In this document: one piece after another, positions 47,357-63,191 of the stretch
Layout of the letters: every line of letters starts with the position of its first letter
How positions within the stretch are numbered: position 1 is the stretch's first letter
Assembly: GCA_045807725.1 (NCBI GenBank)
Contig: JBJMGV010000132.1
Location: forward strand, 7,151-71,150
Direction: 5' to 3'
Length of the DNA: 64,000 nucleotides
From: Blastocatellia bacterium
GTDB taxonomy: Bacteria > Acidobacteriota > Blastocatellia > UBA7656
Notes under the pieces: generated by a model
The model's input: the letters and a program-made list of their open reading frames with translations, nothing else
What the model was told of the DNA's origin: nothing
Databases searched by the model: none
Translations under genes and position numbers: made by a program

Positions 47357-48415
47357 ATGATGAGCACAAAACCAGTCGTCTTCGTATGGCCGGGTGATCT
47401 CCACCTGGAGTTTACCGACCGGCCAAATTACCAGACCGCATTGTGGATGGTGGATGAAGTGAATGAGCTGGTCCAACCGGACTTCGTTCAGTTCGCCGGA
47501 GACAATGTGCAGCACGCCCGCGAGAACGAATGGAGCCTCTTCAAGAACGTGACCGACAAATTGAAGATGCCCTTTCACGCGCTGGTCGGCGACCACGACG
47601 CGCACCATGATCCCGGCTGTTATTCGTACCAGTCGCATGTCGGCGCGACCTACCACGCCTTCACCGTCGGCGGCTATCGCTTCATCTGTTTGAACACGAA
47701 TCAGTATAAGCCGCTCGGTATGAGCGAGGAGCAGGTCATCTGGTTTCGTTACGAAGTAGACGCGGCCCTCGCGCGCAACGAGCGCGCCATTGTCTTCCAG
47801 CACAACTATCCTTTTCAGGTCTGGGAAGACTTCGCCGGGCCGGGCATGGAGGCGTGGCGCGAGGTGATGCAGACGCGCCCGATTACGGCGCTCTTTTCCG
47901 GTCATACGCACTACGATCAGGTGGCAAATGATGGCCGCAATGTTTATGTGGCGACGCGATCTATTGGCGACCCCGAAGGCGGTGCCGCCGGCTACGCCAT
48001 CATTCATCTCGATGGCGACGATCTGGCTATGACCTATCGCACCATTGAAGACAGCGGGCCTGTCGTGCTAATTACACATCCGCGACGCATCATCCTTGCA
48101 ACCAGGGCCGCGCATATTGTCACGGGGCCGACAGATTGCCAGGTGCGTGGATGGTCTGCTGTGCCCATCACTTCGGCGCGTGCGCGCATTGATGAAGGCG
48201 CTTGGAGCGAGATGCGCAAGATCGGCGGGATGACGTGGAATTTTCCTATCCCCGGTGACACGCTGGCCAAAGGCGAGCACACATTGGAAGTCCGCCTGAC
48301 CGATCAGAACGAAGCCGAAGGAACAGATCGCATCACGTTCGCCTGCGACCTGTCTGGCCGCTATAACCCTTATCCGATGGTCGAGCCTGTGGTGAAGGGA
48401 ACGAAGTTCTGCTGA
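47357..48415 (+). CDS. Calcineurin-like metallophosphoesterase
   Basis: GDLH, GDNV, GDHD, GHTH metal-binding motifs in canonical order. Confidence 0.85.
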   Translation: MMSTKPVVFVWPGDLHLEFTDRPNYQTALWMVDEVNELVQPDFVQFAGDNVQHARENEWSLFKNVTDKLKMPFHALVGDHDAHHDPGCYSYQSHVGATYHAFTVGGYRFICLNTNQYKPLGMSEEQVIWFRYEVDAALARNERAIVFQHNYPFQVWEDFAGPGMEAWREVMQTRPITALFSGHTHYDQVANDGRNVYVATRSIGDPEGGAAGYAIIHLDGDDLAMTYRTIEDSGPVVLITHPRRIILATRAAHIVTGPTDCQVRGWSAVPITSARARIDEGAWSEMRKIGGMTWNFPIPGDTLAKGEHTLEVRLTDQNEAEGTDRITFACDLSGRYNPYPMVEPVVKGTKFC

Positions 48416-48467
48416 ACGAAAGCCTTGCCGTTTGCATAGCAGCGGGCCGAAATCGGGCGGCGCTTGC

Positions 48468-48568
48468 TCTAAATCGAAGCACATGAGATGGGGATAGGGA
48501 AGATTGGCCACAGAGGCACAGAGACACCGAGCGGGAATAAAACATGTTGAGAAGATCAGGACTTCTTC
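48468..48568. repeat. ~100-bp dispersed repeat, copy A; reverse-complement homolog at 57498..57595
   Basis: About 93% identity by eye to the inverted 57.5 kb copy (ttggccacagaggcacagagacaccgagcgggaataaaacatgttgagaagatcaggacttc). Confidence 0.7.
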
Positions 48569-48704
48569 AATTCCGCCCTCTATGGTGATCAAGCCGAACG
48601 ATTCCGGGTCCTGCATCAGGCTTCAATCTATAACGCGAGAACGGTTGGCGAATCGGCTCATCCTTCAGTGATGATGAATGACTATGACCTTCCATTCGTC
48701 CGCG

Positions 48705-50000
48705 TCACTGCGCACGATGAGACCTCCATGAATCGCGGAGCGCATTCCACATCCGACCGGCCAGCGGGTTCCGAGATCGAGAGAAACGCCCGCTGGCAAA
48801 TCGGTCGCGAGCTTGAATGTCTGCCGGCAGTTCGAGCAGAAGACGATAAGCCGTCACATCGTCGGTCGAGAAGGCGTGGACACAGCCCCACAGATACAGA
48901 TGGAAGCGGCGGTATAATCGCTCGCCCCAACGGGCGACGATTTCGTCGCGGTGACGGTCCAGGTTCTCGGCCCAGTGCCTGGTCGTGAGCAAGTAATTGT
49001 GGCGGTCATTACGCACCTCAATCAACTCGAAGGGCGTCTTCACAACCGCGTCAAGGTAATCCGTCAGTTGTAGCGGCGTCGTGTTCCCCGGCCAGATGTG
49101 TGAGAGCACAAATGAGGAGAAGGCGTACTTTTGCCGCGCGGCGCATGCGTCAAGAAATACGCGCCCGCCCGGCTTCAATAATTTCTCATACTGCGCCAGG
49201 GTGGCGGCATAGTCCGGCAGATGCTCGGTGACGCCGAGATTCACAATCGCGTCAAAGCGCTCCTCGGATGCGTATTCGAGGAAGTGCTCGCGGACGACCT
49301 GGCACGGCAGATTCTCGTGAGCGATCAGATCGTTGACGTAACGCTCCGACTCGGCTGAGATCGTCAGCGAGGTCACGCGCACGCCGCGCTTGCCGGCGTA
49401 CTCCGTAAACGCGCCCCAGCCCGCGCCGATGTCGAGGACGCGCCAGCCGGGCCGTATGCCGCAAGCGGCGATGGCCGTGTCCAGTTTGCGCCGGATGGCG
49501 CTGTGCAGCGGCTCCGCGTCATCCTCGAAATAGCCGTGCGAATAGCAGCGGTGTTGTTGATCGAGAAAGAGCAAATAGAAATCCGACTCGCTGTCGTAAT
49601 GCTCACTGATCCACTGCTTGTCGCGCTCCACCTGGCCGAAGAGCAAGCGTTGCCCATAAGTTGACCAGAGGTAAAGCAGCGGGTGGCGGTCGGTGAGCCG
49701 TGTGCGAAGATCCAGCGCCGCCACCAGATCGCCTTCGATGCCGATGTCGCTATCCAGGTAGGCTTCGCCGATTCGCTTCTCGTCCATAGAAGTGATGGCT
49801 GCTAAGCCGCGCTGGTTATGGATGGCGACTCGGAATTTGACCGCCCCATTGCCGATGCGGCGCAACGCTCCATCAAGTTCCAGCTCGAATGCCGTGTCGG
49901 GCAGCAGGCTAGAGGCCAGGGAATCTATGATCTGTTTCAATCGTGCGGGCGGCTCAACTCTCTCGACACTCGCCGTTACAGGTAGCTTGATACTTTGCAC
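48705..50000 (-). CDS. Cyclopropane-fatty-acyl-phospholipid synthase-family SAM-dependent methyltransferase
   Basis: CMAS-family layout: RVLDIGAGWGAFTEYAG SAM motif, GVRVTSLTIS, C-terminal lipid-binding region. Confidence 0.85.
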   Translation of the reverse strand: MQSIKLPVTASVERVEPPARLKQIIDSLASSLLPDTAFELELDGALRRIGNGAVKFRVAIHNQRGLAAITSMDEKRIGEAYLDSDIGIEGDLVAALDLRTRLTDRHPLLYLWSTYGQRLLFGQVERDKQWISEHYDSESDFYLLFLDQQHRCYSHGYFEDDAEPLHSAIRRKLDTAIAACGIRPGWRVLDIGAGWGAFTEYAGKRGVRVTSLTISAESERYVNDLIAHENLPCQVVREHFLEYASEERFDAIVNLGVTEHLPDYAATLAQYEKLLKPGGRVFLDACAARQKYAFSSFVLSHIWPGNTTPLQLTDYLDAVVKTPFELIEVRNDRHNYLLTTRHWAENLDRHRDEIVARWGERLYRRFHLYLWGCVHAFSTDDVTAYRLLLELPADIQARDRFASGRFSRSRNPLAGRMWNALRDSWRSHRAQ

Positions 50001-50121
50001 TTTAATAATCTCCTTCTCTGTATGTCGTGCGCGGCGCAGGGTCGCTCCAGCAGACCGGCTCTGGCCAGCGGATCACTTTAACTATTCGTTCCTGAGAATT
50101 GCTCCTACTGATTGACGGCAG

Positions 50122-51147
50122 CTAAATCTGTTGCTTGAGCCAACCGATCACCTGATTTTCCAGACCAGGCGGGCTGAGCTGGCCAAGATCGAGGCGCTTC
50201 GGGAAATAGATATGGCCGCCCGGCTCGACCCATATAGTGGAAAGCGCGTGGGAAGCCCCGGCGATGGCCGGTATTACGGTTTCGGGTGGCACAAGCGGAT
50301 CATGTCGGCTCTGCACGACCAGCGACGGGATACGCAGCCGGTGTAGCCTTGCTGCCACGCTTTCGCGTTCGTAATAGTCTCCGGCGCTGCGAAAGCTGAA
50401 GCGAGCCACGACGGTCAGCGAGTCTCGCTCTCGGCAAGAGCGGGCGCGGGCGACCACTGCCGTAGGTATCTGCACACGACCGCGCCCGGCGGCGGCGGCA
50501 TAGGCTTTATTCAAACTGCTGAAGATGTGAAGCCGGTAGGGCCTGCGCGTGGGATGGTCGAAGGCTCTCGTCGCGTGATGCAGGTCCAGCGGCGGACAGA
50601 TGGCCGCGACCGCGCGCAGCCGCGAGTCCGCCTGCTCGACGGCGGCGCGTAAAGCGATGTGGCCGCCGACTGAATAGCCGAGCAGCAAAACATGCTTGTA
50701 GCGCGCGACCTCAGGGGCGGCCAGCGCCGCCCACAGGTCTTGAGTGATGCCGCCGTGGAGGATGTCTTCGCCGGAGAAGTCCGCGCCGCGCAGCGACAGA
50801 CGCAAGCAAGAGAATCCAGCTTGCGTAGCGGCCTGCGCGGCGCTCGCACAGTAAGGACTCATGGCGTTGCCGGACAGGCCATGCACGATCAGGACAATCG
50901 TATCGGCCCCTTCGACCTCGGAGAGCAGCCCGGTCAGGCGCACAGGCCCCATCACCGGGTCAGCAACGTCGGTCTGAAAGGCGCGAGATTCGCAGTTTGT
51001 CGGTGGATGGAGCAGGGAGAGCAGCGCCGGGACTATTGTCCAGAGGTGCCCTGCCGCGTGTCCCAACAACCGCCGCGCTGGAGACGCTTTCGACTGGCGT
51101 GGCCGAAGGCTTGGTGTTGTTCTGTTAATCAGCAATCCATTCGTCAT
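50122..51147 (-). CDS. Alpha/beta hydrolase
   Basis: Nucleophile elbow GYSVGGHIAL, abhydrolase fold length. Confidence 0.8.
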   Translation of the reverse strand: MTNGLLINRTTPSLRPRQSKASPARRLLGHAAGHLWTIVPALLSLLHPPTNCESRAFQTDVADPVMGPVRLTGLLSEVEGADTIVLIVHGLSGNAMSPYCASAAQAATQAGFSCLRLSLRGADFSGEDILHGGITQDLWAALAAPEVARYKHVLLLGYSVGGHIALRAAVEQADSRLRAVAAICPPLDLHHATRAFDHPTRRPYRLHIFSSLNKAYAAAAGRGRVQIPTAVVARARSCRERDSLTVVARFSFRSAGDYYERESVAARLHRLRIPSLVVQSRHDPLVPPETVIPAIAGASHALSTIWVEPGGHIYFPKRLDLGQLSPPGLENQVIGWLKQQI

Positions 51148-51249
51148 TTTCGTTACCGTCTCCGTCTGTAATTAATCAGGGGCGGCTACAGCAAGCCGCC
51201 CCTGACTGTCGCGTTCGTGCGCGGTTAGCGATATGCCTTGCGGCTCGCG

Positions 51250-51738
51250 CTAGTAATCAATCGTGCCGACGAGGGTCAACTCGAAACCGCCAGTGAGCGG
51301 GTTAACGGTCACCACGAAGTCGGCGCTGCCGCTCGCCTCCGCAAACCGGCCCGTGCCCCCGACAAAGTGGAATATCCCGTGATCAATACCTATGGTTGGA
51401 TCGAATGATCCTTGAACTACCATGTTCAGCTTATCGCCATTGGCGGCAACGACTGTCGCTGTGCCGCTGGACGGTATCTTGCCGTTGGCGTCGGGCGGGC
51501 CATAATTGACGGTCCCGGTGGTGGTCCACAAACCAAGATGGGTAGCCGTGCCGGAAGCGGTGACGTTAGCGCCGATTATGTGGCCCGCTTCATCTGTGAT
51601 AAAGGACGCGACTCCGTTGCCGTTAAGGGCAAAGGGGCGTTCGGTGGCTGCGGCGGGGATCGCTCCCAGCAGCAAGAGGGTGATTACCGTGATAATTCGC
51701 ATCGTTGAAAATCGTCTCATCTGTTTTCTCCTTTTCAT
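51250..51738 (-). CDS. Small secreted beta-rich protein (hypothetical)
   Basis: Signal peptide (ITVITLLLLGAIPAAA), Gly/Thr-rich ~130-aa mature part. Confidence 0.55.
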   Translation of the reverse strand: MKRRKQMRRFSTMRIITVITLLLLGAIPAAATERPFALNGNGVASFITDEAGHIIGANVTASGTATHLGLWTTTGTVNYGPPDANGKIPSSGTATVVAANGDKLNMVVQGSFDPTIGIDHGIFHFVGGTGRFAEASGSADFVVTVNPLTGGFELTLVGTIDY

Positions 51739-52100
51739 TAGCTACGTACTGACTATCGAGTGACGCATAGAGTAATTAACCATACTTGTGGCTCCTCTAT
51801 ACTTCCGCCCTGGCGCTGAGCCGGTCATCAAGACCTGCTCAAGCCTGTTGTCACTCTAGAGTGGTCAACAATCGAAAAACATCACACCCTGTTTTTTGCT
51901 GAAGCTCACAGGCCATCGGCGAGGAGGATGCAGAGGCGCGGCGGCGCGGCGGGTGAGATGGACACGGCAAGGCGCGCCGGCCAACCTTTTCAGGCTGCCT
52001 AAGCGCTTGAGGTCAAGGTGGATTATCGAAGGCGAGGAATGTGTACCGGCTACGAGCAGGATGTGGCTTTGGCGGGCGCTCTCCGGCAGACTCGCGAAGA

Positions 52101-53105
52101 CTATTTTCTCAGCACTTCAAAATAGTGGTAGGCAATCTCTTCAGTTGTTCCTTGACTGGTCATTCCCTTGAGGAGCAACTCGTAATCGCCGGCCTTGAGC
52201 AGGCGTGCCGGCAGATTCAAGATGACGGCTCGCCCGGCGCGCACACGGTGCGCCGCTAAATCGCCTTGCGACCAGACCTGCGCCCCACCCGGCGCGCGAA
52301 GCTCAGCGCCGAAGCTTCGGTATTCATCTTCCGGCTCGATGCCGACTTCGACTTTCACCCTTTGCGCCGATTGAGGCAGTATCAGCTTCGGGCGGGCGCT
52401 GTCGTTGCGTGAGAGGCCCGGCCATAAGGCCAGCGAGACGATGGCAGCAGGCGGGGGGCGGGTTGTGGATTCTTCCAACTGGCGCTGGAGTTCACCGATC
52501 ACTTGCTGGCTGCGCTCGCGCTCGTCGCGCTCGCGCTCAAGCTCGGTGGACATCTCTTCGCGGCGCGCCCGCTCGTCGGCGACCTGCTGTTGGAGAGCGT
52601 GCTCGTCGCGCTCGCGCGCCTGTTGCTCTGCGCGAAGCCCCGCAAGCTGCGCGCGCAGGCGAACGCTATCTGTAATCAGCCATGCGCCACCGATCATGAC
52701 CAGCACAGCGGCGGCGGCTAGCGCGTATCTGGCCACCGGGTTGAGTCCCGCCAGAAAGGCTCTGACAACGCCCGGCCATGTGATGGAGGCTTTAACGCCC
52801 GACTGTCGCGCCCCTTTCTCTACTACCGCGAACTCAGGCGCGACGCGGGCTAAAGCTCTGGCGAATTCCACCTTTCGGCGTCGCTCTGCCGAGGCAAAAA
52901 AGCGGCCCTCGAACTGCCCGCGCTCGCGCTCAGAGAGTTCCCTTCGCACATAAGCATCGATCAAATCGCTCTCTGCCGCCTCTATGCTTCGCAGGCATAG
53001 CGGGTCTTGAAAGGCGCGCTCTTCGACCTCTACCTGCTCTTCTTCCGTGAGATCGCCAAGCAGGTAGCGAACGAGCAACTCTTCGCTGAACGAATCCACT
53101 CTCAT
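52101..53105 (-). CDS. Single-pass membrane anti-sigma-factor-like protein (paralog of 63170..63937)
   Basis: Acidic N-terminal cytoplasmic domain (LLGDLTEEEQVEVEERAF...DLIDAYVRRELSERERGQFEGRF), one TM helix, coiled-coil ER-rich segment, C-terminal extracytoplasmic domain; sits directly downstream of an ECF sigma gene. Confidence 0.6.
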   Translation of the reverse strand: MRVDSFSEELLVRYLLGDLTEEEQVEVEERAFQDPLCLRSIEAAESDLIDAYVRRELSERERGQFEGRFFASAERRRKVEFARALARVAPEFAVVEKGARQSGVKASITWPGVVRAFLAGLNPVARYALAAAAVLVMIGGAWLITDSVRLRAQLAGLRAEQQARERDEHALQQQVADERARREEMSTELERERDERERSQQVIGELQRQLEESTTRPPPAAIVSLALWPGLSRNDSARPKLILPQSAQRVKVEVGIEPEDEYRSFGAELRAPGGAQVWSQGDLAAHRVRAGRAVILNLPARLLKAGDYELLLKGMTSQGTTEEIAYHYFEVLRK

Positions 53106-53164
53106 GCTTAAAATGTCCCTTTATAGAATAAGTGGCAAAAACCGCCTATTCATCACAAGGCGCG

Positions 53165-53791
53165 TCATTTTTCCAGACACTGCTCGACGCATGCCTGGAG
53201 CTTTTCTCTGAGACGTAGCGCACGCATCCTTAGCGTGTTGACCGGGACCTTGAAGCGGTCGGTCAGCCGCTTGCGGTTTTCTATCTTGGTTCCTTTCTCT
53301 CCCTGATAATAGGCGATGATCAACTCGCGGTTATCGGCAGGCAGATTTTCCAGACATTGGCGCAGGCATTCAATTGGCGCTTCCGACTCTGAAGCATCGT
53401 CGGCGAGGGGTTGCGAGTTGGCCATCTCACTCATCGCCTGTTGCTCCCTGGCCCGTTCTTTGCCGATCTCCAGCAGGAGCAAGCGCGCCACGCCCATACA
53501 ATAAGCGGATGGGGTGCGAACCTCTTCGCCTGCGGCCAGCTTTCTGGCCACACGGTTCATGGTTTCGTCGGCGTGGTCTTCAGGAAACGGACAGCCGCGC
53601 CATTCAAAAAATCGTATCAGGTTGCCGCGAACCTCAAGGTATTTCTCGCCGGCGCTGTCGCGGTCTTCCCCGAAAGCGGCCAGCAACCTATCGAACGCGT
53701 CTTGCGTTAAGGCCCACCTGAGGCGCGGCACGGAAGCCGCCGGCGTAGCTGCCGATTCGCTTTCGATGTCTCCCCTGCTCAGCCCTTCCAT
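53165..53791 (-). CDS. ECF-type sigma-70 family sigma factor
   Basis: Region 2-like core (NRVARKL...AYCMGVARLLLLE) and region 4 HTH (LPADNRELIIAYYQGEKGTKIENRKRLTDRFKVPVNTLRMRALRLREKL). 18 bp downstream of the TPR-CHAT gene. Confidence 0.75.
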   Translation of the reverse strand: MEGLSRGDIESESAATPAASVPRLRWALTQDAFDRLLAAFGEDRDSAGEKYLEVRGNLIRFFEWRGCPFPEDHADETMNRVARKLAAGEEVRTPSAYCMGVARLLLLEIGKERAREQQAMSEMANSQPLADDASESEAPIECLRQCLENLPADNRELIIAYYQGEKGTKIENRKRLTDRFKVPVNTLRMRALRLREKLQACVEQCLEK

Positions 53792-53809
53792 CGCTGCCTC
53801 CGCGTCCGA

Positions 53810-56800
53810 TCATTTCCACTCGCCCTGAAGCGTGAAGGCGGCCCAGTAGTGAGGGGCCATCCAGCGTTTGTCTTTCCACATCGAGACCTGAGCCGCGCGC
53901 AAGGCGGCGGCGGGCCTGAGTCCCTGCTTCAACATCGCTTCATAGAAACGCCCCATGAACTCAGACGTAGCCCGGTCGTCAACCTGCCACAGGCTCGCCA
54001 CGACGCGCGGCGTGCCGGCGTACATAAAGCCGCGCGTCAGCCCCACCAGCCCTTCGCCTTTGATCTCTTTGCCGAGCGCCGTCTGACATGCGCTGAGCAC
54101 CACGAGGTCGGCTTGCAGTTTCAAGTTATAGATGTCGTAAAGCCGCAGAAAGCCATTCTGTGCGTGGCCCTGCTCGTCTACGAGCGACAAGACTACCCCG
54201 GACAACTCCGGGTGATGGTTGTTGATCAAGCCGTGCGTGGCGAAATGAACGATGGCATAGCGGGCCAGTTCGGGGCTGGTCGCTGCCGCGCGGTTGGCGG
54301 CGAAGTCTACCGCTTCGAGCTTCTTGCTTTCGGGCACGAGGCGCATGATCTGGTCGGCTTCCTGTCGGCTGAAGCGCAGCCTGACGAAACCGCGCAGCCC
54401 CAATTCGGTGGCCGACCTGTTGACATCGCCCGTCGTCTCTGAGGCCGCCGTCGCCCGGCTCTTGCTCGCGCGTCCGATTCTCGGATCATCGCTATCAAAG
54501 ACGGGGTCGGCGAAAACGGCGACAGCCTTGTCAGCCGGTTTGCGCCCGCCGATCTCTCGCCGCAGAGCCGCCAGCACGGACGCCGAAGGGAGAGTGATGA
54601 TCTCGTGATCCGCGATCAGCGGCGACGAGACAGCGCCGGGACGCGGGGTGGGCAGAGCCGCGAAGGCTGTGTATTGCAGCATTCCTTCACCAACGATGAC
54701 CAGCCGTTTGTTCTGTAGTTCGGCAGCCACAGGGCCTAACAGCATACGGCTCAACAGGGCGGCGGCTTGCGGGTAATCGGTAGCGGCTTGCTCTATTCGT
54801 TTGCGCCTTTGTTCCGGGGTTTCGCCGATGGGCGACTGGTTGCGCGCCGTCAGCAGTTCGTAGACGCGCCGCGCCGCCTCTTCGATCTCCGCCCGTTTGG
54901 GCAGTTCAAAACTTTGTATCGAAGCCGGCGTCACCGCCCAGAGGAAGCTCTTCTCTTCGCCAAGCGCGTATTCCAGCAGCAGCGTCTGCTCGTCGAGCAG
55001 ATCGTGCTGAAGCGCTTCGAGGGTCAGCGGGGCCGGCTCAGTCAGCGCGGCGTATCGCGGGCTGATCTGCCGTATCTGCGCCTGGGTCTGCTCGTAGTCT
55101 GTCGTGAGCGTGTTGATCTCTTTAGCCGCCGTCGCCGCCTGTTCTTCGGTGTGCTTGCTGCTGAGCAGGCGCATCTGGCCGTCCGCCTTGTCGGAGATGG
55201 CTTGTCTTAGCAGCCGCTCGCGTTCAAGCAAGGACGGATCAACCCCTTCACGAATTTCACTGCTGGCTTCGGCGAGCATTTCGAGCAGGGATCGCGCACG
55301 GCCCCGCTCGCTCGCCTGTAAGGCGGCGGCGTCGAAGCCTGCCGAGGGCTGCTGTTTGTGCATGCGCATCAAGAGGTCAACATAAAACTCGTGCGACTTG
55401 CGAACCGACGCGAAGAAGGCGGCGCGCAGTTGATAGCTCTTGACGTTGACGCGCAATGACTCGACCGCCGCCAGCGCCGCCTCGATGCGACGGCGGGCCT
55501 CAATGAGGTTGCCGCGATCACGTTCGAGCCGCGCCATATGCGCCAGCACTCCCGCTTCATTGTTCGGATCGCCGATGGCGCGCGATATTTCCAATGCCTC
55601 GTTAAAGCAATCGAGCGCCTTCTGCGGCTCGCCCAGTTCCCGGTAGAGCGCGCCGACGTTTTTGAGCGCGCTTGCCATCTGACGCCGATTGCCGACGGCG
55701 CGATGCAAGGCAACCGACTGATTGAAATAATCAAGCGCCTGCTGCTTCTCTCCGAGGTTCGTGTAACAGCTAGCGATGTTGTTGAGCGAGACCGCTTCGC
55801 CGTCGCGGTTATTCATAGCGCGGCGTAGCGCGAGCGCGCGCTGGTTGATCTCAAGCGCCTTGCGAAAATCTTTCAGGTCGGCGTAGTTGACGGCGATGTT
55901 GTTGAGGACGTTCCCCTCGCGATACTGGTCGCCGGCGGCGCGAAAGATCTCTAGCGCCTGATTGTAGAAGTCAATCGCTTTCTGATACTCGCCCAACGTG
56001 CCGTAGACCCAGCCGATGTTATTGAGCGCGATGGCGTCGCTCTGGGCGGGGCCTAGCTGCTTGTGAATCACCTGCGCCTGGGTGTAGAGGTCGAGCGCCT
56101 TCTGATAATCGCCCAGGCCCGAATAGGCCGTGCCCATGTTGTTGAGGACGGTCGCCTCGCTCGAACGGTCATTCAACTGTCGCCTGATTGAAAGCGACTG
56201 CTGACAGAGGTCTATCGCCTTCTTATACTCGCCGAGGTCGCTGTGGATCACGCACTGGTTATTGAGCAGCGAGGCCTCTTTTCGCACGTCGCCCAGCGCG
56301 GCCAGCACCTTGCGCGACTGGTCAAAGAAGTCGAGCGCCTTCGGCCAGTCGCCCATGTACCCATAAGCCATGCCTATATTATTAAGCGTGCCGACCTCGC
56401 CGACGCGGTCGCCACTCGCTCGCCTGAGCGGCAACGCCTGATTGAATAGCTCAAGCGCTTTCTTCTTATCCCCGAATTCGATGTAGACCTGGCCGGTGAT
56501 GTCGAGCGTAATGGCTTCGACCTTCTGCCCCAGGCGACGCGCTTCTTCGCCGGGCTGACGGGCCGCGTCATGCGCAACGGGCAGGGCGCGCTCCGAGAAG
56601 TCGAGCGCCTTCTGCTTGTCGCCGGCACCAATGTAAGCGGAGCTGATCAGGTAGAGCGCGGTGGCTTCCCATGCCGGGTTTTTAGCCGACTGGCAGAGCG
56701 GGAGAGCCTGCTGGTATTTCTCTATAGCCTTCAGCCGCAACTCGGTGGTCGCTTGCCTGCCAAGCAGTATGCCTTCAGCGATCAACCCCTGAGCGGCGAC

Positions 56801-57328
56801 CAGGCTCTTGTCCTGCGCGGTCGCGGCTCGCAACTCCTGAACCTTAATCTCGTAGCGGCCCGCCGGGGCGGCTGGGTCGGGCGACCGCACCTCCAGCCGA
56901 TAGCTCCCGCCCGCCTCGGTTACGAACGTCACCAGTTCCAACTCGCCTATGCTGAAGCCGTCTGACTCGACGACCTTCTTGCCATCTGGAGCGAAGGCCG
57001 CCAGCGCGACGTTGATGCCGCGCTGATCGACGACCACCTGAACATATTGGTCGGTGGCGAGTCTAAGCTGATACGAATGTGTCTCTCCGCCGTTAAGCCC
57101 TCGTTCGATGGGCTTAGCGGCTTCGAGCACGCCGGCATTACTTTGATCCTGTGGCGCGGCACCATTCGCCTCGCCGGATCGTTGCAGCCGAGATGCCTCT
57201 GTGCGCGGATAAGCGGCGGGAGCCGAGAGCGCCAGGATCATCAGGCTCAGACCTAGAATGACGCCCTCTCTTAGTGAATGGCGAGCCGCCTGGGCTGCTC
57301 TTATCGCTACTATTGCCTGCTGTAGCAT
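53810..57328 (-). CDS. Membrane-anchored TPR repeat / CHAT domain (caspase-like clan CD peptidase) protein
   Basis: N-terminal signal anchor; more than 500 aa of TPR repeats (repeating ALxxxQxAL, NNIGxxY); C-terminal CHAT domain with His (HFATHG) and Cys (VVLSACQTALG) dyad context and the terminal HYWAAFTLQGEW motif. Confidence 0.85.
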   Translation of the reverse strand: MLQQAIVAIRAAQAARHSLREGVILGLSLMILALSAPAAYPRTEASRLQRSGEANGAAPQDQSNAGVLEAAKPIERGLNGGETHSYQLRLATDQYVQVVVDQRGINVALAAFAPDGKKVVESDGFSIGELELVTFVTEAGGSYRLEVRSPDPAAPAGRYEIKVQELRAATAQDKSLVAAQGLIAEGILLGRQATTELRLKAIEKYQQALPLCQSAKNPAWEATALYLISSAYIGAGDKQKALDFSERALPVAHDAARQPGEEARRLGQKVEAITLDITGQVYIEFGDKKKALELFNQALPLRRASGDRVGEVGTLNNIGMAYGYMGDWPKALDFFDQSRKVLAALGDVRKEASLLNNQCVIHSDLGEYKKAIDLCQQSLSIRRQLNDRSSEATVLNNMGTAYSGLGDYQKALDLYTQAQVIHKQLGPAQSDAIALNNIGWVYGTLGEYQKAIDFYNQALEIFRAAGDQYREGNVLNNIAVNYADLKDFRKALEINQRALALRRAMNNRDGEAVSLNNIASCYTNLGEKQQALDYFNQSVALHRAVGNRRQMASALKNVGALYRELGEPQKALDCFNEALEISRAIGDPNNEAGVLAHMARLERDRGNLIEARRRIEAALAAVESLRVNVKSYQLRAAFFASVRKSHEFYVDLLMRMHKQQPSAGFDAAALQASERGRARSLLEMLAEASSEIREGVDPSLLERERLLRQAISDKADGQMRLLSSKHTEEQAATAAKEINTLTTDYEQTQAQIRQISPRYAALTEPAPLTLEALQHDLLDEQTLLLEYALGEEKSFLWAVTPASIQSFELPKRAEIEEAARRVYELLTARNQSPIGETPEQRRKRIEQAATDYPQAAALLSRMLLGPVAAELQNKRLVIVGEGMLQYTAFAALPTPRPGAVSSPLIADHEIITLPSASVLAALRREIGGRKPADKAVAVFADPVFDSDDPRIGRASKSRATAASETTGDVNRSATELGLRGFVRLRFSRQEADQIMRLVPESKKLEAVDFAANRAAATSPELARYAIVHFATHGLINNHHPELSGVVLSLVDEQGHAQNGFLRLYDIYNLKLQADLVVLSACQTALGKEIKGEGLVGLTRGFMYAGTPRVVASLWQVDDRATSEFMGRFYEAMLKQGLRPAAALRAAQVSMWKDKRWMAPHYWAAFTLQGEWK

Positions 57329-57457
57329 GGGCCTCCAATCGGTGTGCTACGGATCAGCAAACGACTCTGCGAGGCACCTACTATACCTCCACTCAGCAGA
57401 TGAATTCAAAACTAAGAGCGCTTCTAAATCAGACCGCATGAGAAAGGCCCAAACGCA

Positions 57458-57595
57458 TTGGCCACAGAGGCGCAAAGGCAGAGAGAAGATCACTAAAGAA
57501 GTCCTGATATTCTCAACATGTGTTATTCCCGCTCGGTGTCTCTGTGCCTCTGTGGCCAATCTTCCCTGTCCCCATCTCATCTGCTTCGATTTAGA
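57458..57595. repeat. ~100-bp dispersed repeat, copy B (inverted relative to 48468..48568), preceded by a short direct partial copy that makes it a local hairpin
   Basis: gaagtcctgatattctcaacatgtgttattcccgctcggtgtctctgtgcctctgtggccaatcttccctgtccccatctcatctgcttcgatttaga matches the reverse complement of copy A. Confidence 0.7.
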
Positions 57596-58161
57596 CACTC
57601 AGGAATCCAGCCGGTCCATTGTCCAATACGGAGGACCGTGGTTTAAGATCGAGGTTGACATAACGAGAAGACCATCGTAGAGTAGCCGCGCTTCATCGTC
57701 CGTGCGGAATGAATAACGCGGGCCGGCCTCAATCAAAGGCAATTGCAAAGTTCGATTAAATCATCCGGGGATGATCCTGTCAGGCAGCGGAGCGAGGTCT
57801 GCCGCTCGTAACCCCGGGCTGTCACGCTAACAACGAAGCGGTTGCGAGGTAACGGAGCGCATCGCGCATCGGCTTTCGCGTCTCTCTGTGTCAGGCCCAA
57901 ATCGCAGCGCCATAGGTGAGCACGAAACGCGCCCGGATGGCGTGCCGTTGTGAGGTCACTTTCACGGCGTTTCGCCGCCGCGACGGTGAATGGCGGGTCG
58001 AGACTTTCAACGCCAGGCGAGTTTACTCGAAATGATTTCTCGTATTTGAGCATTCAAGAATGGTTGGCAGTTTTACCGGCAGGGCGCGCCGCCTCCCCGG
58101 ACACGCTGTCGGAGCCAGCTCGTTCAAAGCCCCAGTCTGACAAAAAGGAGAGTAAGCACCG

Positions 58162-59946
58162 ATGAGCGAACCGAAAGAATGGACTCTGATGTTCTATTTC
58201 GCAGGCGATAACAATCTAGCCCCCCTTGTCGTCTCCCTGCTCAAAGAGATCAAAGACGCCGGCTCCCAGCCGGATACCGATGTCCTGGTCTATTTCGACC
58301 CTAACGAGTTGGGCGTACCGACGCGCATATTCAATGTGAACCATGGCAGCAAGAAAAGGAAGAAAGCGCAAATCGGTCAAGGCACAGACCCCTTCGTGCA
58401 TAACATGAGGAGTGACTCTGTTGACCTGGATAAGATGAAGGTCGTTCCCGGCACGTTCACGGAGAAAATGTCCCGGATGCTCAAATTTCCAGATGAGGTG
58501 ATGGCGGAAGAGTCGTTAGAAACTTTTCTCGGCTTCTGCCGCGAGAAGTATCCGGCTAAACGCTACATGCTTTTTCTTCTCGGGCACGGCCTGGTGGTCG
58601 GCAATGATGCCTTTTTGCCGGATGACCATCCGATGAGCGCCATCACTCTGTGCAGACTCGGAGGGATTGTGAGAGGCTTCACCAAGGCATTAGGAAAGGA
58701 CAGCTCTTTGGAACTGCTGGCTCTACATAGCTGCTCGATGAGCGCTATCGAAGTGGCCTACGAGCTGAAAGGCACAGCGAAGTCTATGATGGCCTCAGAA
58801 GGCCCGGCCTTCGTCGGCAGTTGGCCCTATCGCCACCTGTTGATCAAGACCTTCAACGTTTCTGAAAAAGCGGTGGAAGACGCGCAGCAGAAGGCCGCGC
58901 AGATGAAGGCGGGTCAGGCTAAGGCGGTGATCCTCCCGATCATCAAGGCCCCGGCCCTGGTCAAGAAGCTCTATTACCTGACCGTGTATAACGCGGTTGA
59001 TTTTCTGTTTGCCGGCTACTCTCACGATCTGGCGTTTTGTAGTCTTAACCCCGGAAAAATAAATCGGCTCATGACCGCGCTCCACCAGTTGATCGTTCTG
59101 CTCAACAAGGGACTGAAGCAGACGAACGATAAGGTCAAGGCGCGCGCCGAACGCGGCAAGCGCGTCAAAGAGATGGTGCTGCTGGCCCACTGGGAGGCAC
59201 AAAGCTACTGGGGCGAGAGCTACACCGACCTTTACGACTTTTGCCGCTGCCTGCGCGAACACTGCAAGCCGGAGGATGAGCTGGCGCAGGCGTGTTGCGA
59301 TGTGATGAGTGCGCTCAAAGCGGTCGTCCTTTCACACAATTTCGGCTCGAAGGTGCAGTACTCGCATGGCCTCTCGATCTTCTTCCCTTGGTCAAAGCCG
59401 GCTACGGCGGCAGAGACGGAGAGTGATGAGACTAAGAAGCAATATGAAAGTGGCGACAATAACCAGTCCACCGCCCCCGAACGGCCTAAAGAGAGATATG
59501 AAAAACAAGGCATGGGAATTTGGGAACGGTATGAGCAGTATGCCTTCACGCAAGACTTAAAGAAGGTGGACAAGGAAAATTCCTGGTTCGACTTCCTCGA
59601 CATCTACTTCGAGGTGACCAAGCGCAAGTTCCGCCAGGAAGAAGATGGCACGCCGCTCCTACCGAAGTTTGTAAGCAGTAGGGGAAGCAGTCCACCGCTC
59701 GGCGCGTTGGCCGGCCTCTTATCCAGGGATAAGCCGGATCCGTCACTCGACAAACCGGACCCGTCAGTCGGAGTTGATTACGCCTGTTTGGCAATTAAGA
59801 ACTACCCCGACGAGAGGGATCTGAGAAAACGGTGGGAGGAAGCCAGAAAAAAGGCAGGCGTTACCCAACTGAAGAGCGCCCTCCAAAACCAGATCGATCA
59901 GCAAATCACCGCCGCAGCTCAAGAAGTATTGGCCTCGGCGGACTGA
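58162..59946 (+). CDS. Clostripain-like (C11 family, clan CD) cysteine peptidase, cytoplasmic
   Basis: N-terminal WTLMFYFAGDNNL (C11 signature), His-Gly (LLGHGL) and SC(S)M Cys motif (LALHSCSMSAI) in clan-CD order; AAGGAG RBS upstream; no signal peptide. Confidence 0.7.
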   Translation: MSEPKEWTLMFYFAGDNNLAPLVVSLLKEIKDAGSQPDTDVLVYFDPNELGVPTRIFNVNHGSKKRKKAQIGQGTDPFVHNMRSDSVDLDKMKVVPGTFTEKMSRMLKFPDEVMAEESLETFLGFCREKYPAKRYMLFLLGHGLVVGNDAFLPDDHPMSAITLCRLGGIVRGFTKALGKDSSLELLALHSCSMSAIEVAYELKGTAKSMMASEGPAFVGSWPYRHLLIKTFNVSEKAVEDAQQKAAQMKAGQAKAVILPIIKAPALVKKLYYLTVYNAVDFLFAGYSHDLAFCSLNPGKINRLMTALHQLIVLLNKGLKQTNDKVKARAERGKRVKEMVLLAHWEAQSYWGESYTDLYDFCRCLREHCKPEDELAQACCDVMSALKAVVLSHNFGSKVQYSHGLSIFFPWSKPATAAETESDETKKQYESGDNNQSTAPERPKERYEKQGMGIWERYEQYAFTQDLKKVDKENSWFDFLDIYFEVTKRKFRQEEDGTPLLPKFVSSRGSSPPLGALAGLLSRDKPDPSLDKPDPSVGVDYACLAIKNYPDERDLRKRWEEARKKAGVTQLKSALQNQIDQQITAAAQEVLASAD

Positions 59947-60026
59947 TTCCGCCCGGCTGGCTTTGCCTACTGCGGCTGTCCTGTTGCCGGCGAGCGCGTG
60001 GCTCGCGCTCGCCGGCGGTGCAAGCG

Positions 60027-63000
60027 ATGATTAAACGACGTCTACTCCTGCTGTTGATGCTTATCCTGTTGCTGCCCGCCGCTGCTTTGCGGTCGCAGGA
60101 CGAGGACGTGCTGACCCGCGAGAGCGATGAGAGCGCAACGACAATCGCAGAGCGACAGCGCGCGTTGACGGCGCTTTTGGCCGCCTCACAGCAGATGCGT
60201 GAAGCCGGGCAGGCGGCGCAGGCGGCGCGCTTTCTCAATCGCGCCGGTCGCTTGCATCTCCAACTCAGCTCGCCGCACGACGCCGTAGCCGCTTACCAGG
60301 AAGCGCTGTCGCTTGCCGAACAGTCGCTCGTCCCGGCTATCAAGGCCGATAGCCTTAACGGCCTGGGCGCAGCGCACAAGCATCTGGGCGACTGCGATCA
60401 GGCGCAAGCCTTTCTCCAACAGGCTATCGTCGTGAGCGAGCAGAGCGATTACGTCGCGGGCAAAGCCGAAGCGTTGCTCATACTAAGTGATTGTCAGACC
60501 TACAGCGATCACGCGCTGGCGCTGCGAACGGCGCAGCAGGCGCTCGCGCTCTTCCAGTCTATAGACCATAAATGGGGCATCGCTAAATCCTATGCCGCTG
60601 TCGGCGAGTATCAGTTCGATCAGAACAACTTGCCTGAGGCTACCGCCAGCTATGAAGCGGCGTTGAATCTTTGGCGCGAACTCAAGCTGTCAGACCAGCA
60701 GGCCGAGGCGCTCATCAGCCTCGGCTACATTGAATATCGCCGAGGGGCTTGGCAAAACGTCTTCGCGTTTTTCACGCAAGCGCAAGCGTTGCTCGACGAA
60801 CAGGCCGAGCCTTACAAAATGGGCCAGATTCATGCCGGCCTCGCCAATGCTTTTATCGAAAGCGGCATGCCAGAGACCGGGCTGGCCAAGTACATGCAAG
60901 CTCTTGATGACTATAACCAGACACATAACCGGCGCGCTGTGACGGCGATGATCTGGGGCATCGGTAGGGCTAATTACATTTTGGGCAACTATGAGGAAGC
61001 GCGTCGCCATTTAGAGAACGCGCTCGCAGAGGCTGAATCCATCAAAGAAAACAAGATCGCTGCCCTGTGCAATGACTTTTTGGGACAGACCGCGAGGGCA
61101 ACGAATGACCAGACCGCCGCCCTGCACTATTACGAGGTCGCGCTCAACTTGTATACGCAGGCGGCTAGCCCTATGGAGGCCGCGCGCGTGCTCGCTTTGA
61201 TAGGACAGGTCTACGAGCAGCAAGGGAAAGTTGAACAGGCACGGGCGTTTTACCAAAGCGCGTTGAAAACATTCCGCGCCCTCTCGCATCAGATTAACCA
61301 GTCGGCTACTCTTTATGCGCTGGGGAGCCTGGAGTTGAAGCAGCGCCGCTTAAATCTGGCGGAAGACTACTTGCGCCAGTCCATCGAAGTGACTGAGAAC
61401 ATCCGCCGCGTCTCCACGAGCCGGGACCTGACGGCTGCCTTTTCTGCCACCGTCTACGACCGCTACGAAAAGTATATTGACTGTCTGATGCAAGAGTATG
61501 AAGCGCGGCCAGCGCCTGACCTGCTCGTGCGCGCGTTCGAGACTAGCGATGTCGCGCGCGGGCGTTCGTTGTCCGAGCTGCTGCGGGCGACCGAAACCAA
61601 CCTTGTGCCCGGCCTTGACCCGCAACTGGCCGAGCGCGAAAAGTCGCTCCGTCTGCTGCTGCGGGTCAAAGAAGACGACAAAGTTACTCTGCTCAGCAAA
61701 ACCTATAAAACGAAAGAACTGGTTGCCTTAGACGCTGACCTGACGCGCTTGCAGGCTGAGTATAAAGAGGTCGGCGAAGCGATACAGGCGCGCTATCCTG
61801 CTTACGGGCCGGTGACTCGCCCGGTGGCCTGGAGTCTACAGCAAATTCAGGAGCAGGTCGTTGCCGACGACGAGACGGTGCTGTTGGAATATAGTTTCGG
61901 CTCAGACCAGAGCTACGCCTGGGCCGTCACGCGCGAGGGCATCAAGAGTTATCGCTTGCCCGCCGGGGCGCTCATCAATGAAACGGCGCAAAGAGTCTAT
62001 AAGCTGCTGGCCGTGCCGCCTGACCCGAATCAGACGAATGATCTCAACAACGCGCTTCAGGAATTGAGCGCGATGGTTCTGTCGCCGGTCGCCGCTGAGC
62101 TAAACAAGCGCCGGATTCTGATTGTCGCCGATAGTGCGCTACATTACATTCCTTTTCAGGCGTTGCCTACGCCTCAGCCGGGCGGCGAATCGCTTGTCGC
62201 CGATTACGAAATCATCAACATCCCTTCGGCCTCCATTCTCGGAGAGCTGCGCCAGGAGGCAACGCGGCGGCAGCCGACGAAAATGCTGGCCGCGTTCGGC
62301 GACCCGGTCTTCGCGTCGAACTATGCGCAGGCCAGCGGCGTGAGCAGCGGGCCTGTGGTCGCTATGCAATCGCTTGAGATGGCGCGCTGGCAAAACGCTC
62401 TGCGCGACGTTGCGCTCAACGCCGGACCCAACGGCGACACGCTCGACCCCGCAGCGATCAAGCCGCTCTTTTATGCCAAGCGCGAGCTGGCTACGTTGCG
62501 CGATGCGGCGGCGGGCGGCGAGACGGCCATCTCGTCGGGCTTCGCTGCCAGCCGCGAACAACTGCTGCACACCGACCTGTCGCAATACGCCATTCTTTAT
62601 TTCGCCACACACGGGCTGCTCGATCCGAAGCGGCCCGAAAACTCCGGCTTGTTGCTATCAACGGTGAATCGTGACGGGCAAGCGCAGAACGGCTTTGTCG
62701 GGTTGCAAGACATCTATGGCCTGCGCGCGCCGGTTGATCTGGTCGTCCTGAGCGCCTGTCAGACGGCGCTCGGCAAAGACGCGCGCGGCGAAGGCTTGCT
62801 CGGCCTCACGCGTGGGTTTATGTACGCCGGCGCATCCAGTGTAATGGCCAGTCTGTGGAAGGTAGACGACGAAGCGACCGCCGAGCTGATGCGCCAGACT
62901 TACGTCAATATGCTGCAAGAGGGAATGCCCCCGGCGGCGGCTTTGCGCGCGGCGCAGAATAGCATTCGTCAAAGGCCAGAGTGGCGCTCGCCTTATTACT

Positions 63001-63191
63001 GGGCCGGGTTCACGTTGCAGGGGGAATATCTTCACGTCATCCGCCCCGCTTCTGCCACAGGCGCTGCCGGTTTATATGGAAGGGGAATAGTAATCGGGGG
63101 GTTGATGCTGCTGGCCTTGATGGCCGTGTGGTTTTATCGCCGCCGCCAGCGGTCGCAAGCGATCATTAGCTATTCGATGACGAAAAAGTAA
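60027..63191 (+). CDS. TPR repeat / CHAT domain protein with N-terminal signal peptide and C-terminal TM anchor
   Basis: ATG at 60027 gives signal peptide MIKRRLLLLLMLILLLPAAALRSQ (the ORF track start 59832 overlaps the upstream gene); TPR array; CHAT motifs (YFATHG, VVLSACQTALG, YYWAGFTLQGEY); C-terminal hydrophobic helix plus basic tail. Confidence 0.85.
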   Translation: MIKRRLLLLLMLILLLPAAALRSQDEDVLTRESDESATTIAERQRALTALLAASQQMREAGQAAQAARFLNRAGRLHLQLSSPHDAVAAYQEALSLAEQSLVPAIKADSLNGLGAAHKHLGDCDQAQAFLQQAIVVSEQSDYVAGKAEALLILSDCQTYSDHALALRTAQQALALFQSIDHKWGIAKSYAAVGEYQFDQNNLPEATASYEAALNLWRELKLSDQQAEALISLGYIEYRRGAWQNVFAFFTQAQALLDEQAEPYKMGQIHAGLANAFIESGMPETGLAKYMQALDDYNQTHNRRAVTAMIWGIGRANYILGNYEEARRHLENALAEAESIKENKIAALCNDFLGQTARATNDQTAALHYYEVALNLYTQAASPMEAARVLALIGQVYEQQGKVEQARAFYQSALKTFRALSHQINQSATLYALGSLELKQRRLNLAEDYLRQSIEVTENIRRVSTSRDLTAAFSATVYDRYEKYIDCLMQEYEARPAPDLLVRAFETSDVARGRSLSELLRATETNLVPGLDPQLAEREKSLRLLLRVKEDDKVTLLSKTYKTKELVALDADLTRLQAEYKEVGEAIQARYPAYGPVTRPVAWSLQQIQEQVVADDETVLLEYSFGSDQSYAWAVTREGIKSYRLPAGALINETAQRVYKLLAVPPDPNQTNDLNNALQELSAMVLSPVAAELNKRRILIVADSALHYIPFQALPTPQPGGESLVADYEIINIPSASILGELRQEATRRQPTKMLAAFGDPVFASNYAQASGVSSGPVVAMQSLEMARWQNALRDVALNAGPNGDTLDPAAIKPLFYAKRELATLRDAAAGGETAISSGFAASREQLLHTDLSQYAILYFATHGLLDPKRPENSGLLLSTVNRDGQAQNGFVGLQDIYGLRAPVDLVVLSACQTALGKDARGEGLLGLTRGFMYAGASSVMASLWKVDDEATAELMRQTYVNMLQEGMPPAAALRAAQNSIRQRPEWRSPYYWAGFTLQGEYLHVIRPASATGAAGLYGRGIVIGGLMLLALMAVWFYRRRQRSQAIISYSMTKK

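Follow-up and report, generated by a model that had tools for sequence, protein, structure and literature searches.

The region of interest in the 64-kb stretch of Blastocatellia DNA analysed here (the window) comprises a metallophosphoesterase gene, a block of six minus-strand genes and, beyond these, a second CHAT module, with one arm of an inverted repeat in each of the two intergenic regions that bound the block. The gene block, listed for context only, is as follows:

48705..57328, minus strand: six genes encoding a CMAS methyltransferase, an alpha/beta hydrolase, a 162-aa secreted protein, a 334-aa protein, an ECF-like sigma factor and a TPR-CHAT protein

A sequence-only reading of the window had labelled members of this block as a CFA-synthase-like methyltransferase, an alpha/beta hydrolase and a TPR-CHAT protein, and Pfam assignments (CMAS, alpha/beta hydrolase, TPR+CHAT) agree with it. 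They also bear out its placement of a second CHAT/C11 module just outside the right copy of the repeat (Peptidase_C11 and a second TPR+CHAT). The same reading proposed an anti-sigma-like/ECF sigma pair, of which the ECF member is weakly supported (208-aa protein, NCBIfam TIGR02989, E 1e-11, below cut-off) and the anti-sigma member has no family support.

A repeat search of the window returned positions 48468-48567 and 57496-57595 as a 100-nt inverted repeat, 96% complementary, with 8,928 nt between the arms. The left arm is identical to the right copy at 96 of 100 nt, i.e., the two differ at four positions, and the longest uninterrupted identical stretch common to both arms is 45 nt. BLASTN searches of both intergenic regions against the window gave E about 1e-42, and the 21-nt core occurs three times in the window compared with zero occurrences in 100 shuffles. 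An inverted repeat of ~100 bp at 48468 / 57595 had already been recognized by eye and is real; the right arm begins at 57496 and not at 57498 as given, and the visual estimate of ~93% identity was too low. The open reading frames 48068..48616 (minus strand) and 57258..57680 (plus strand), cited at the time for their matching peptides, are present and contain ...EEVLIFSTCFIPARCLCASVANLPYPHLMCFDLE... and ...KEVLIFSTCVIPARCLCASVANLPCPHLICFDLD..., respectively; the ORFs crossing the repeat are spurious. What had been overlooked is that the right arm belongs to a 173-nt palindrome, of which it makes up one half; the other arm occupies 57423-57495 and includes a diverged copy of the core at 57457-57485. 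The right site contains the following features:

57380..57409, minus strand: TTGAAT-18-TATAGT, a sigma-70-like pair of hexamers directed at the CHAT operon; it is external to the element and falls within the bracketed segment (consensus match only)
57423..57595, plus strand: full-length element, a 173-nt imperfect palindrome with termini TCTAAATC...GATTTAGA, i.e., C-TA-[AATC...GATT]-TA-G
57457..57485, plus strand: first CACAGAG core arm of the full copy, ATTGGCCACAGAGGCGCAAAGGCAGAGAG, pairing with 57532-57560 in the consensus structure (83% complementary)
57496..57595, plus strand: right arm of the reported repeat, element positions 74-173, made up of the apical loop's distal half, a single CACAGAG core arm and the terminal arm on the outer side
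57532..57560, minus strand: second CACAGAG core arm of the full copy, reading ATTGGCCACAGAGGCACAGAGACACCGAG on the minus strand and identical to 48503-48531
57655..57683, plus strand: sigma-70-like hexamer pair TTGACA-17-TAGAGT, facing the C11/CHAT operon, outside the element (consensus match only)

The CHAT operon (start 57328, minus strand) and the C11/CHAT operon (start 58162, plus strand) diverge from an 833-nt spacer in which the full copy is situated. This copy is predicted to fold as one long hairpin (RNA MFE of -66.6 kcal/mol, z of -3.6, equalled by 0 of 200 shuffles), displays self-complementarity in 118 of 181 aligned columns and is covered over its full length, 57423..57595, by the nhmmer profile of the element (E 4e-62). 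The 173 nt are crossed by spurious ORFs only and have no Pfam or Rfam content; at gathering thresholds the whole window has no Rfam match, and searches of both repeat regions at E up to 10 returned only noise (plant miRNA and snoRNA models). An orthologue search for this site gave a best C11 homologue of 54% identity, with no comparable intergenic DNA.

A third copy was found through the peptide that the repeat encodes in its spurious reading frames. Among 1.84 billion proteins searched with phmmer, the one true relative is a spurious 81-aa ORF on another soil metagenome contig (L123), in which a full-length copy of the element occupies positions 405-577 (151 of 173 nt identical, no indels, same length and termini). 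This copy lies between the complete 3' end of purD and an unrelated ORF, in flanks unrelated to the window, and the purD stop codon TAA is composed of the flanking TA and the first base of the element. Its hairpin is again more stable than shuffled sequences (z of -6.3), and the two full copies differ by one compensatory and four one-sided pair-preserving changes, a set that with two sequences is too small for covariation statistics. The copies seen number three, at three unrelated sites in two assemblies (two in the window, one elsewhere). About 80 kb of related Blastocatellia DNA contained none, and a 31-mer conserved in all three copies had no match in viral contigs. An exact 22-mer from the loop retrieved no true copy from JGI metagenomes; its single match, within an rfbA-like gene in a low-GC organism, is due to chance. 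As the loop is the most variable part of the element, this negative result carries little weight.

The left site was resolved by comparison with the two closest relatives (L120 and L117, about 90% nucleotide identity). Its features are:

48435..48467, plus strand: region with a short hairpin, downstream of the stop codon (48415) of the metallophosphoesterase gene, a weak positional counterpart of a hairpin in the relatives, folding no better than shuffles
48468..48567, minus strand: left arm, a truncated element copy comprising positions 74-173 only (nhmmer match spans model positions 58-173 only)
48503..48531, plus strand: CACAGAG core arm of the truncated left copy, from the repeat search
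48568..48613, no strand assigned: 46 orphan nt that separate the truncated element from the relic motif, without a match to the missing arm of the element or to the relatives
48614..48668, minus strand: relic promoter-like motif GAGCCGATTCGCC...TCGCGTTATAG, with no gene downstream of it in the window

The intact terminus of the left copy (C-TA, 48469-48471) points toward the metallophosphoesterase gene and its breakpoint is at positions 70-81, within the loop at the apex of the predicted inner hairpin; without the rest of the palindrome the region folds no better than shuffles (z of 0.13). The metallophosphoesterase is 93% identical to the window protein at the amino acid level in L120 and 90% in L117, and the genomes are collinear with the window to 48434 (L120) and 48426 (L117). 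Both then continue into a gene for a 185-aa protein, which was not found in the window, and from there into the promoter-like motif. The relic motif at 48614-48668 is 89% identical to L120 3585-3631, 86% to L120 4136-4184 and 83% to two sites in L117; it is a single copy in the window, and among 122 loci it was found only in L117 and L120, where it precedes the 185-aa, FGE-sulfatase and DMT_6 genes beside the metallophosphoesterase gene. The orphan 46 nt next to the motif may be what is left of the 5' region of the 185-aa gene that was lost. We also considered whether the left copy has a degenerate second terminus in GCTTCAATCTA at 48620 and rejected this, as the stretch is homologous to the relatives' promoter-like motif.

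Homology to the relatives at the left site ends directly after the TA that flanks the element (CTCTA/AATC in the window vs. CCCTA/CAG in the relatives, the slash marking the boundary). At the orthologous position L120 and L117 do not have the element and carry the 185-aa gene instead, i.e., the left copy is a presence/absence polymorphism, with an empty site that is blurred by an adjacent later deletion and poor alignment. A synteny comparison with related strains had been suggested by the earlier reading as a check; in the relatives the sequence outside the left arm runs on into the 185-aa gene, followed by the motif that the window has inside the segment. The relic motif at 48614-48668 and the gene just outside the left arm were ancestrally adjacent, so this arm does not form the border of a 9-kb insertion.

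The two arms probably represent two insertions of one small, non-coding, hairpin-forming element of ~170 nt that resembles bacterial MITEs, one of them complete and the other reduced to half. Two copies of a dispersed MITE had been among the options raised initially, and this option is supported by the full-length third copy at a non-homologous site and by the lack of the left copy in the closest relatives. At the left site the element would have entered a TA beside the end of the convergent 185-aa gene, and a later deletion, beginning at the tip of the element's hairpin, may have removed the other arm together with the 185-aa gene and left the promoter-like motif orphaned; this scenario is read from one breakpoint. 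The 9 kb between the copies would then be ordinary, rearrangement-prone chromosomal DNA between two insertions of opposite orientation, and would neither move nor switch as a unit. The element adds a documented MITE-like family to the Blastocatellia (Acidobacteriota), a phylum in which small mobile repeats have been little described, and the left site is a possible example of a palindromic element nucleating the deletion of a neighbouring gene.

TA-flanked MITEs of the IS630/Tc1-mariner type include Correia in Neisseria, RUP in Streptococcus pneumoniae and Nezha in cyanobacteria. Like these, the element belongs to the ~100-200 bp class, lacks coding capacity, has terminal inverted repeats that turn the whole element into a hairpin, is intergenic and near gene ends or promoters, and differs in presence between close relatives. 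In contrast to the named families, it has no sequence similarity to those that could be compared, no cognate transposase in the window and three copies seen, and its centre is a palindrome of CACAGAG repeats that also stands alone, without the outer arms, in many phyla. The five element ends that can be observed all show the context C-TA or TA-G; because TA is its own reverse complement, a TA duplication is not separable from a terminal inverted repeat two bases longer without a clean empty site. PMC2170065 describes TA insertion with TA duplication for IS630-family elements and, citing Tenzen & Ohtsubo 1991, a preference of IS630 for CTAG, which the C-TA...TA-G context of the element matches. 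The TA flanks are consistent with an IS630/Tc1-mariner-type MITE. As judged from these flanks, mobility would most likely be conferred in trans by a TA-targeting DDE transposase of this type encoded elsewhere in the genome. No transposase or recombinase domains were detected within the 64-kb window; a mobilizing IS630-family gene (DDE_3/HTH_Tnp_Tc3-type) would be expected to have ends beginning AATCAGACC.../AATCGAAGC...

The geometry of the locus, two highly similar inverted arms bracketing several kb of genes, is that of composite transposons and invertible segments, and synteny with the close relatives breaks at the left arm. A composite transposon or mobilized cassette using the 100-nt arms as terminal inverted repeats is nevertheless highly improbable, given that the initial ~55 nt on the inner side of the left arm (48614-48668) ancestrally adjoin the outside flank and place this arm within an old contiguous region. 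The two outer ends of such a cassette would not be equivalent because one arm is a truncated half element, there is no transposase or integrase in the segment or next to it, and the flat GC content of the window shows no compositional island. Moreover, the CMAS+hydrolase pair recurs alone in relatives, among other neighbours and without the ECF/CHAT genes, i.e., the cargo is not inherited as a unit. The proposal that the arms are terminal inverted repeats of a mobilized or inverted cassette is contradicted by this ancestral inner flank, the non-conserved unit, the missing transposase or recombinase and the uniform GC content, and annotation of the CMAS-to-CHAT block as a transposon, island or invertible segment is not warranted. 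Inversion of the whole segment by replicative transposition was rejected as well, as the ancestral order from metallophosphoesterase gene to relic motif is kept. The same order in the present orientation speaks against the arms having served as a substrate for RecA-type homologous inversion, with both orientations of the 9 kb in the population and a possible regulatory effect, a reading that is compatible with two MITE-like insertions and that we consider quite unlikely. Inverted arms of 100 nt at 96% identity with a 45-nt identical stretch, here 8.9 kb apart, are long enough for rare homologous recombination, but neither a site-specific invertase nearby nor a promoter or coding junction that a flip would change, as expected of a site-specific invertible switch, was found. 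The CHAT operon's promoter-like site (57409-57380) is itself part of the segment, and an inversion would turn it together with the operon, so that no switch logic is visible. Recombination specifically between the two CHAT modules, for which the repeat had been offered as a substrate, is unsupported: the CHAT proteins are only 33% identical to each other and an inversion would carry the first CHAT operon along with its own promoter-like site. A chimeric or misoriented join at a short repeat could in principle have arisen during assembly, as the source is a MAG contig and synteny breaks adjoin the left arm. Typical final assembly k-mers are longer than 45 nt, and the arms differ at four positions with at most 45 identical bases in a row; the left arm is embedded between two pieces that are neighbours in the relatives and the same element occurs in an independent assembly from another sample, leaving an artefact scarcely credible.

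More weight is due to an interpretation of the element not as a MITE of a DDE transposon but as a REP-like palindrome or a structured 3'-UTR RNA (stabilizer or terminator), spread by another route such as a RAYT/Y1 transposase or by recombination and kept for a function of its RNA or DNA structure, which we still regard as rather unlikely. Its CACAGAG core occurs in many phyla as an intergenic palindrome in several copies, enriched just downstream of long ORFs and with a strand bias of single arms, so that the core alone behaves in other genomes like REP/BIME sequences, which are intergenic multi-copy palindromes often found just after stop codons. Both the L123 copy and the left copy come after a stop codon, and the pair-preserving changes between the two full copies are in line with a conserved structure. 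However, no Rfam family matches, and the full copy in the window is placed between two divergent promoter-like sites and not in a 3' UTR. REPs are 20-40 nt long, most with a GTAG or CGTC head, the feature by which their superfamilies are defined, according to PMC3733652; the element, by contrast, is 173 nt long, has long TA-flanked terminal inverted repeats and ends in TCTAAATC and GATTTAGA, without either tetranucleotide.

Apart from the origin of the two copies, the 29-nt centre of the element, (TT)GGCCACAGAGGCACAGAG-N-CACAGAG, is itself a cross-phylum intergenic palindrome. Scanning a genome collection with a 20-mer of this core returned at least 116 loci in many phyla, and none of these listed loci has the outer arms of the element. 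Literature searches by string and keyword yielded no relevant paper on the core motif, and it has no Rfam match. It is a tentative and somewhat doubtful suggestion that the centre belongs to an undescribed superfamily of such palindromes, of which the TA-flanked 173-nt element of the window would be one mobile derivative. If true, the superfamily would reflect either a mobile element that has been transferred very widely or a conserved function, at the level of RNA or DNA, at the 3' ends of genes; if truly undescribed, the core would be a cheap, testable lead to unusually broad horizontal spread or a conserved 3'-end signal. Among the matches listed, near-identical 20-mers occur in Acidobacteriota, Chloroflexota, Verrucomicrobiota, Planctomycetota, Burkholderiales isolates, Gammaproteobacteria, Bacillota, Leptonemataceae and others, and the core is present in several copies within genomes. 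The retrieved loci contained only separate hairpins between genes and no autonomous elements bounded by cores. Again among the matches listed, the core lies just downstream of long ORFs in 42% of cases compared with 8% of random positions, i.e., five times more commonly, and single arms show a strand bias, with a same-strand gene end upstream in 20 of 42 vs. a convergent gene end on the other side in 4 of 42.

A repeat search of the window returned an inverted repeat with arms at 48468-48567 and 57496-57595, each 100 nt, 96% complementary and separated by 8,928 nt, and BLASTN of both intergenic regions against the window recovered this arm pair only (E about 1e-42). Three copies of a 21-nt core were found in the window, vs. 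none across 100 shuffles. The inverted repeat described in the sequence-only reading is therefore real, and the spurious ORFs that it named are present, with matching peptides in both. Its gene labels were largely borne out by Pfam, which places a CMAS-type methyltransferase, an alpha/beta hydrolase and a TPR+CHAT protein inside the arms, and a Peptidase_C11 protein and a second TPR+CHAT protein outside; the ECF sigma label holds in weakened form, as the 208-aa protein is weakly ECF-sigma-like. Rather than standing alone as a 100-nt unit, the right arm combines with 57423-57495 into a 173-nt imperfect palindrome with the termini TCTAAATC...GATTTAGA, which contains a small apical hairpin and the following feature:

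57457-57485 and 57532-57560, inner 29-nt "CACAGAG" arm pair of the palindrome

The palindrome folds at -66.6 kcal/mol (z -3.6), a value equalled by none of 200 shuffles. The left arm corresponds to element positions 74-173 only; the adjacent 48568-48613 has no relation to the element's missing arm, and the left region folds no better than chance. The breakpoint of the left copy, between element positions 73 and 74, falls in the apical loop (70-81) of the predicted inner hairpin.

Proteins of the window match those of a Blastocatellia (Acidobacteriota) MAG, its source, at 100%. A translation of the repeat in its only open frame, searched against 1.84 billion representative proteins, yielded one genuine relative, an 81-aa spurious ORF on a 983 bp contig (L123) from a different ENA metagenome assembly. 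This contig carries a full-length element of equal length with identical termini (151 of 173 positions identical, no indels). On one side of it lies a complete purD 3' end (GARS_C profile 1-91 of 92), on the other an unrelated ORF, and neither flank resembles the window. With nhmmer, a profile built from the three copies recovered only these three at full length among the window and all loci compared; in many other loci the match was confined to the CACAGAG hairpin at the centre (model positions about 29-145). Since the third copy has unrelated flanks and the profile matches three copies, the element is, on sequence comparison, present at three or more unrelated sites, with boundaries set by the end of similarity at C-TA-AATC...GATT-TA-G. 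Among the three readings proposed initially, two copies of a dispersed MITE is thus the one supported. What is new is this element; the kind of element is already known.

The remaining readings saw the enclosed 9 kb as a mobilised or inverted cassette, or the repeat as a substrate for recombination between the two CHAT modules. The CMAS and hydrolase genes are kept as a pair in two related loci (L121 and L122), but among entirely different neighbours; the element is absent beside the pair in both. None of the 162-aa, 334-aa, ECF-like, CHAT and C11 proteins is encoded in the five related loci compared, GC is uniform (0.54-0.63), and no transposase, integrase or invertase domain was found in the window ORFs scanned, the remaining large ORFs being counterparts of annotated kinase, PP2C and transporter genes in the related locus L117. 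Two close relatives, L120 and L117, are collinear with the window across kinase, CitMHS, ABC-transporter and metallophosphoesterase genes, the last being 93% identical in amino acids (about 90% in nucleotides) in L120 and 90% in L117, and collinearity ends at window 48434 and 48426, respectively. Beyond this stretch both relatives have a convergent 185-aa gene, of which the window retains no trace, preceded on its own strand by a motif that looks like a promoter (about 50 nt, GAGCCGATTCGCC...TCGCGTTATAG). This motif recurs in the relatives upstream of the adjacent FGE-sulfatase and DMT_6 genes and may serve a small regulon as a common regulatory site:

48614-48668, - strand, orphan copy of the motif, one in the window, oriented as in the relatives, no gene downstream
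L117 12755-12801 and 13334-13379, motif in this relative
L120 3585-3631 and 4136-4184, motif in this relative

Window 48435-48613 (179 nt, half element included) thus lies where L120 has a gene-bearing stretch of 650 nt. Because the motif at 48614-48668 follows the 185-aa gene in the relatives, the sequence directly inside the left arm is, from this alignment, the ancestral neighbour of that directly outside; the arm then cannot mark where an inserted 9-kb block ends, and such an inner flank also argues against net inversion of the segment. A sigma-70-like site inside the segment (57409-57380) faces the first CHAT operon; inversion would move the two together, leaving no switch logic. With only 33% identity between the two CHAT proteins, their genes offer no substrate for DNA recombination. 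Neither the cassette nor recombination between the CHAT modules is therefore supported.

Homology to the CMAS loci found in other relatives starts near 48695, which marks a second rearrangement joint. The DNA downstream of the metallophosphoesterase gene is, as judged from these comparisons, a rearrangement hot spot. Window 48415-48705 is occupied by different genes in every relative examined (L117, L118, L120, L121 and L122), and the two joints (about 48434 and about 48695) are <300 nt apart in the window.

TA borders each of the five observable ends among the three copies, in the context C-TA/TA-G. Where the left site is aligned with the two relatives, homology breaks off directly after TA (CTCTA/AATC vs. 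CCCTA/CAG). The purD stop codon of L123, TAA, consists of the flanking TA and the element's first A, as expected if TA had been duplicated at an original TAG or TAA stop. IS630/Tc1-mariner elements are described as inserting into TA with TA duplication (PMC2170065), and IS630 as preferring CTAG (PMC2170065, citing Tenzen & Ohtsubo 1991). Given the TA flanks and this insertion habit, the dispersed element could quite possibly be a MITE mobilised in trans by an IS630/Tc1-mariner-type transposase, although, with TA palindromic, no clean empty site in the relatives and no transposase among the ORFs scanned, this assignment is tentative. From the position of the one breakpoint, a deletion is the best explanation for the half copy; it would have started at the hairpin tip and taken one element arm and the adjacent 185-aa gene. 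Palindrome-tip cleavage and repair are established in general. The window copies differ from each other by 4% and from the L123 copy by 13%, and the window and L120 flanks differ by about 10%; these figures fit a lineage-specific and fairly recent spread.

The core, (TT)GGCCACAGAGGCACAGAG-N-CACAGAG, is not specific to the 173-nt element. The 29-nt CACAGAG-repeat core (window 48503-48531, 57457-57485, 57532-57560) is a cross-phylum intergenic palindrome: a census by exact 20-mer, with one genome per species, gave at least 116 loci in Acidobacteriota, Chloroflexota, Verrucomicrobiota, Planctomycetota, Bacteroidota and others (about ten phyla among the loci listed), including Burkholderiales isolates (Roseateles, Pelomonas), Gammaproteobacteria, Bacillota and Leptonemataceae. 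Among the matches listed, a complementary arm lies within 200 nt in 53 of 122 core hits, several genomes have many copies, and single core arms show a strand bias (20/42 vs. 4/42). The core is enriched directly behind stop codons: for 42% of the listed hits, vs. 8% of random positions, an open frame of at least 150 codons ends no more than 60 nt upstream. The core matched no Rfam family, and a literature search for the core string found no paper containing it. A Chloroflexi MAG (WTGF01000073.1, L042 35-380) carries tandem units that repeat every 115 nt, each combining a CACAGAG-type arm with a CACAAAG/CACGAAG variant oriented the same way; this array shares the core motif with the window element but differs in architecture. 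This cross-phylum core is the part that might reward more work.

Among the enclosed genes' products, the 208-aa ECF-like sigma (within 52101-57328, - strand) weakly matches NF041236, the NCBIfam model for type III-E CRISPR-associated RpoE-like sigma (E 1e-5, below cut-off), and its gene adjoins those of the anti-sigma-like 334-aa protein and the TPR-CHAT protease. The genes of 52101-57328 follow a logic similar to that of the Craspase accessory module (TPR-CHAT, its substrate, RpoE), although, unlike in the Craspase setting, no CRISPR locus accompanies these genes. A second module, Peptidase_C11 and TPR-CHAT, is divergent at 58162-63191. The leader/spacer of its operon (57596-58161) is unusually long, with about 480 nt from a promoter-like site at 57655-57683 to the C11 start codon, and the ORFs within it are all short and probably spurious. 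The first CHAT gene contains nine direct repeats of 120 nt, in register (55594-56656, 60-73% identical), which reflect its tandem TPR units at DNA level and are no separate feature.
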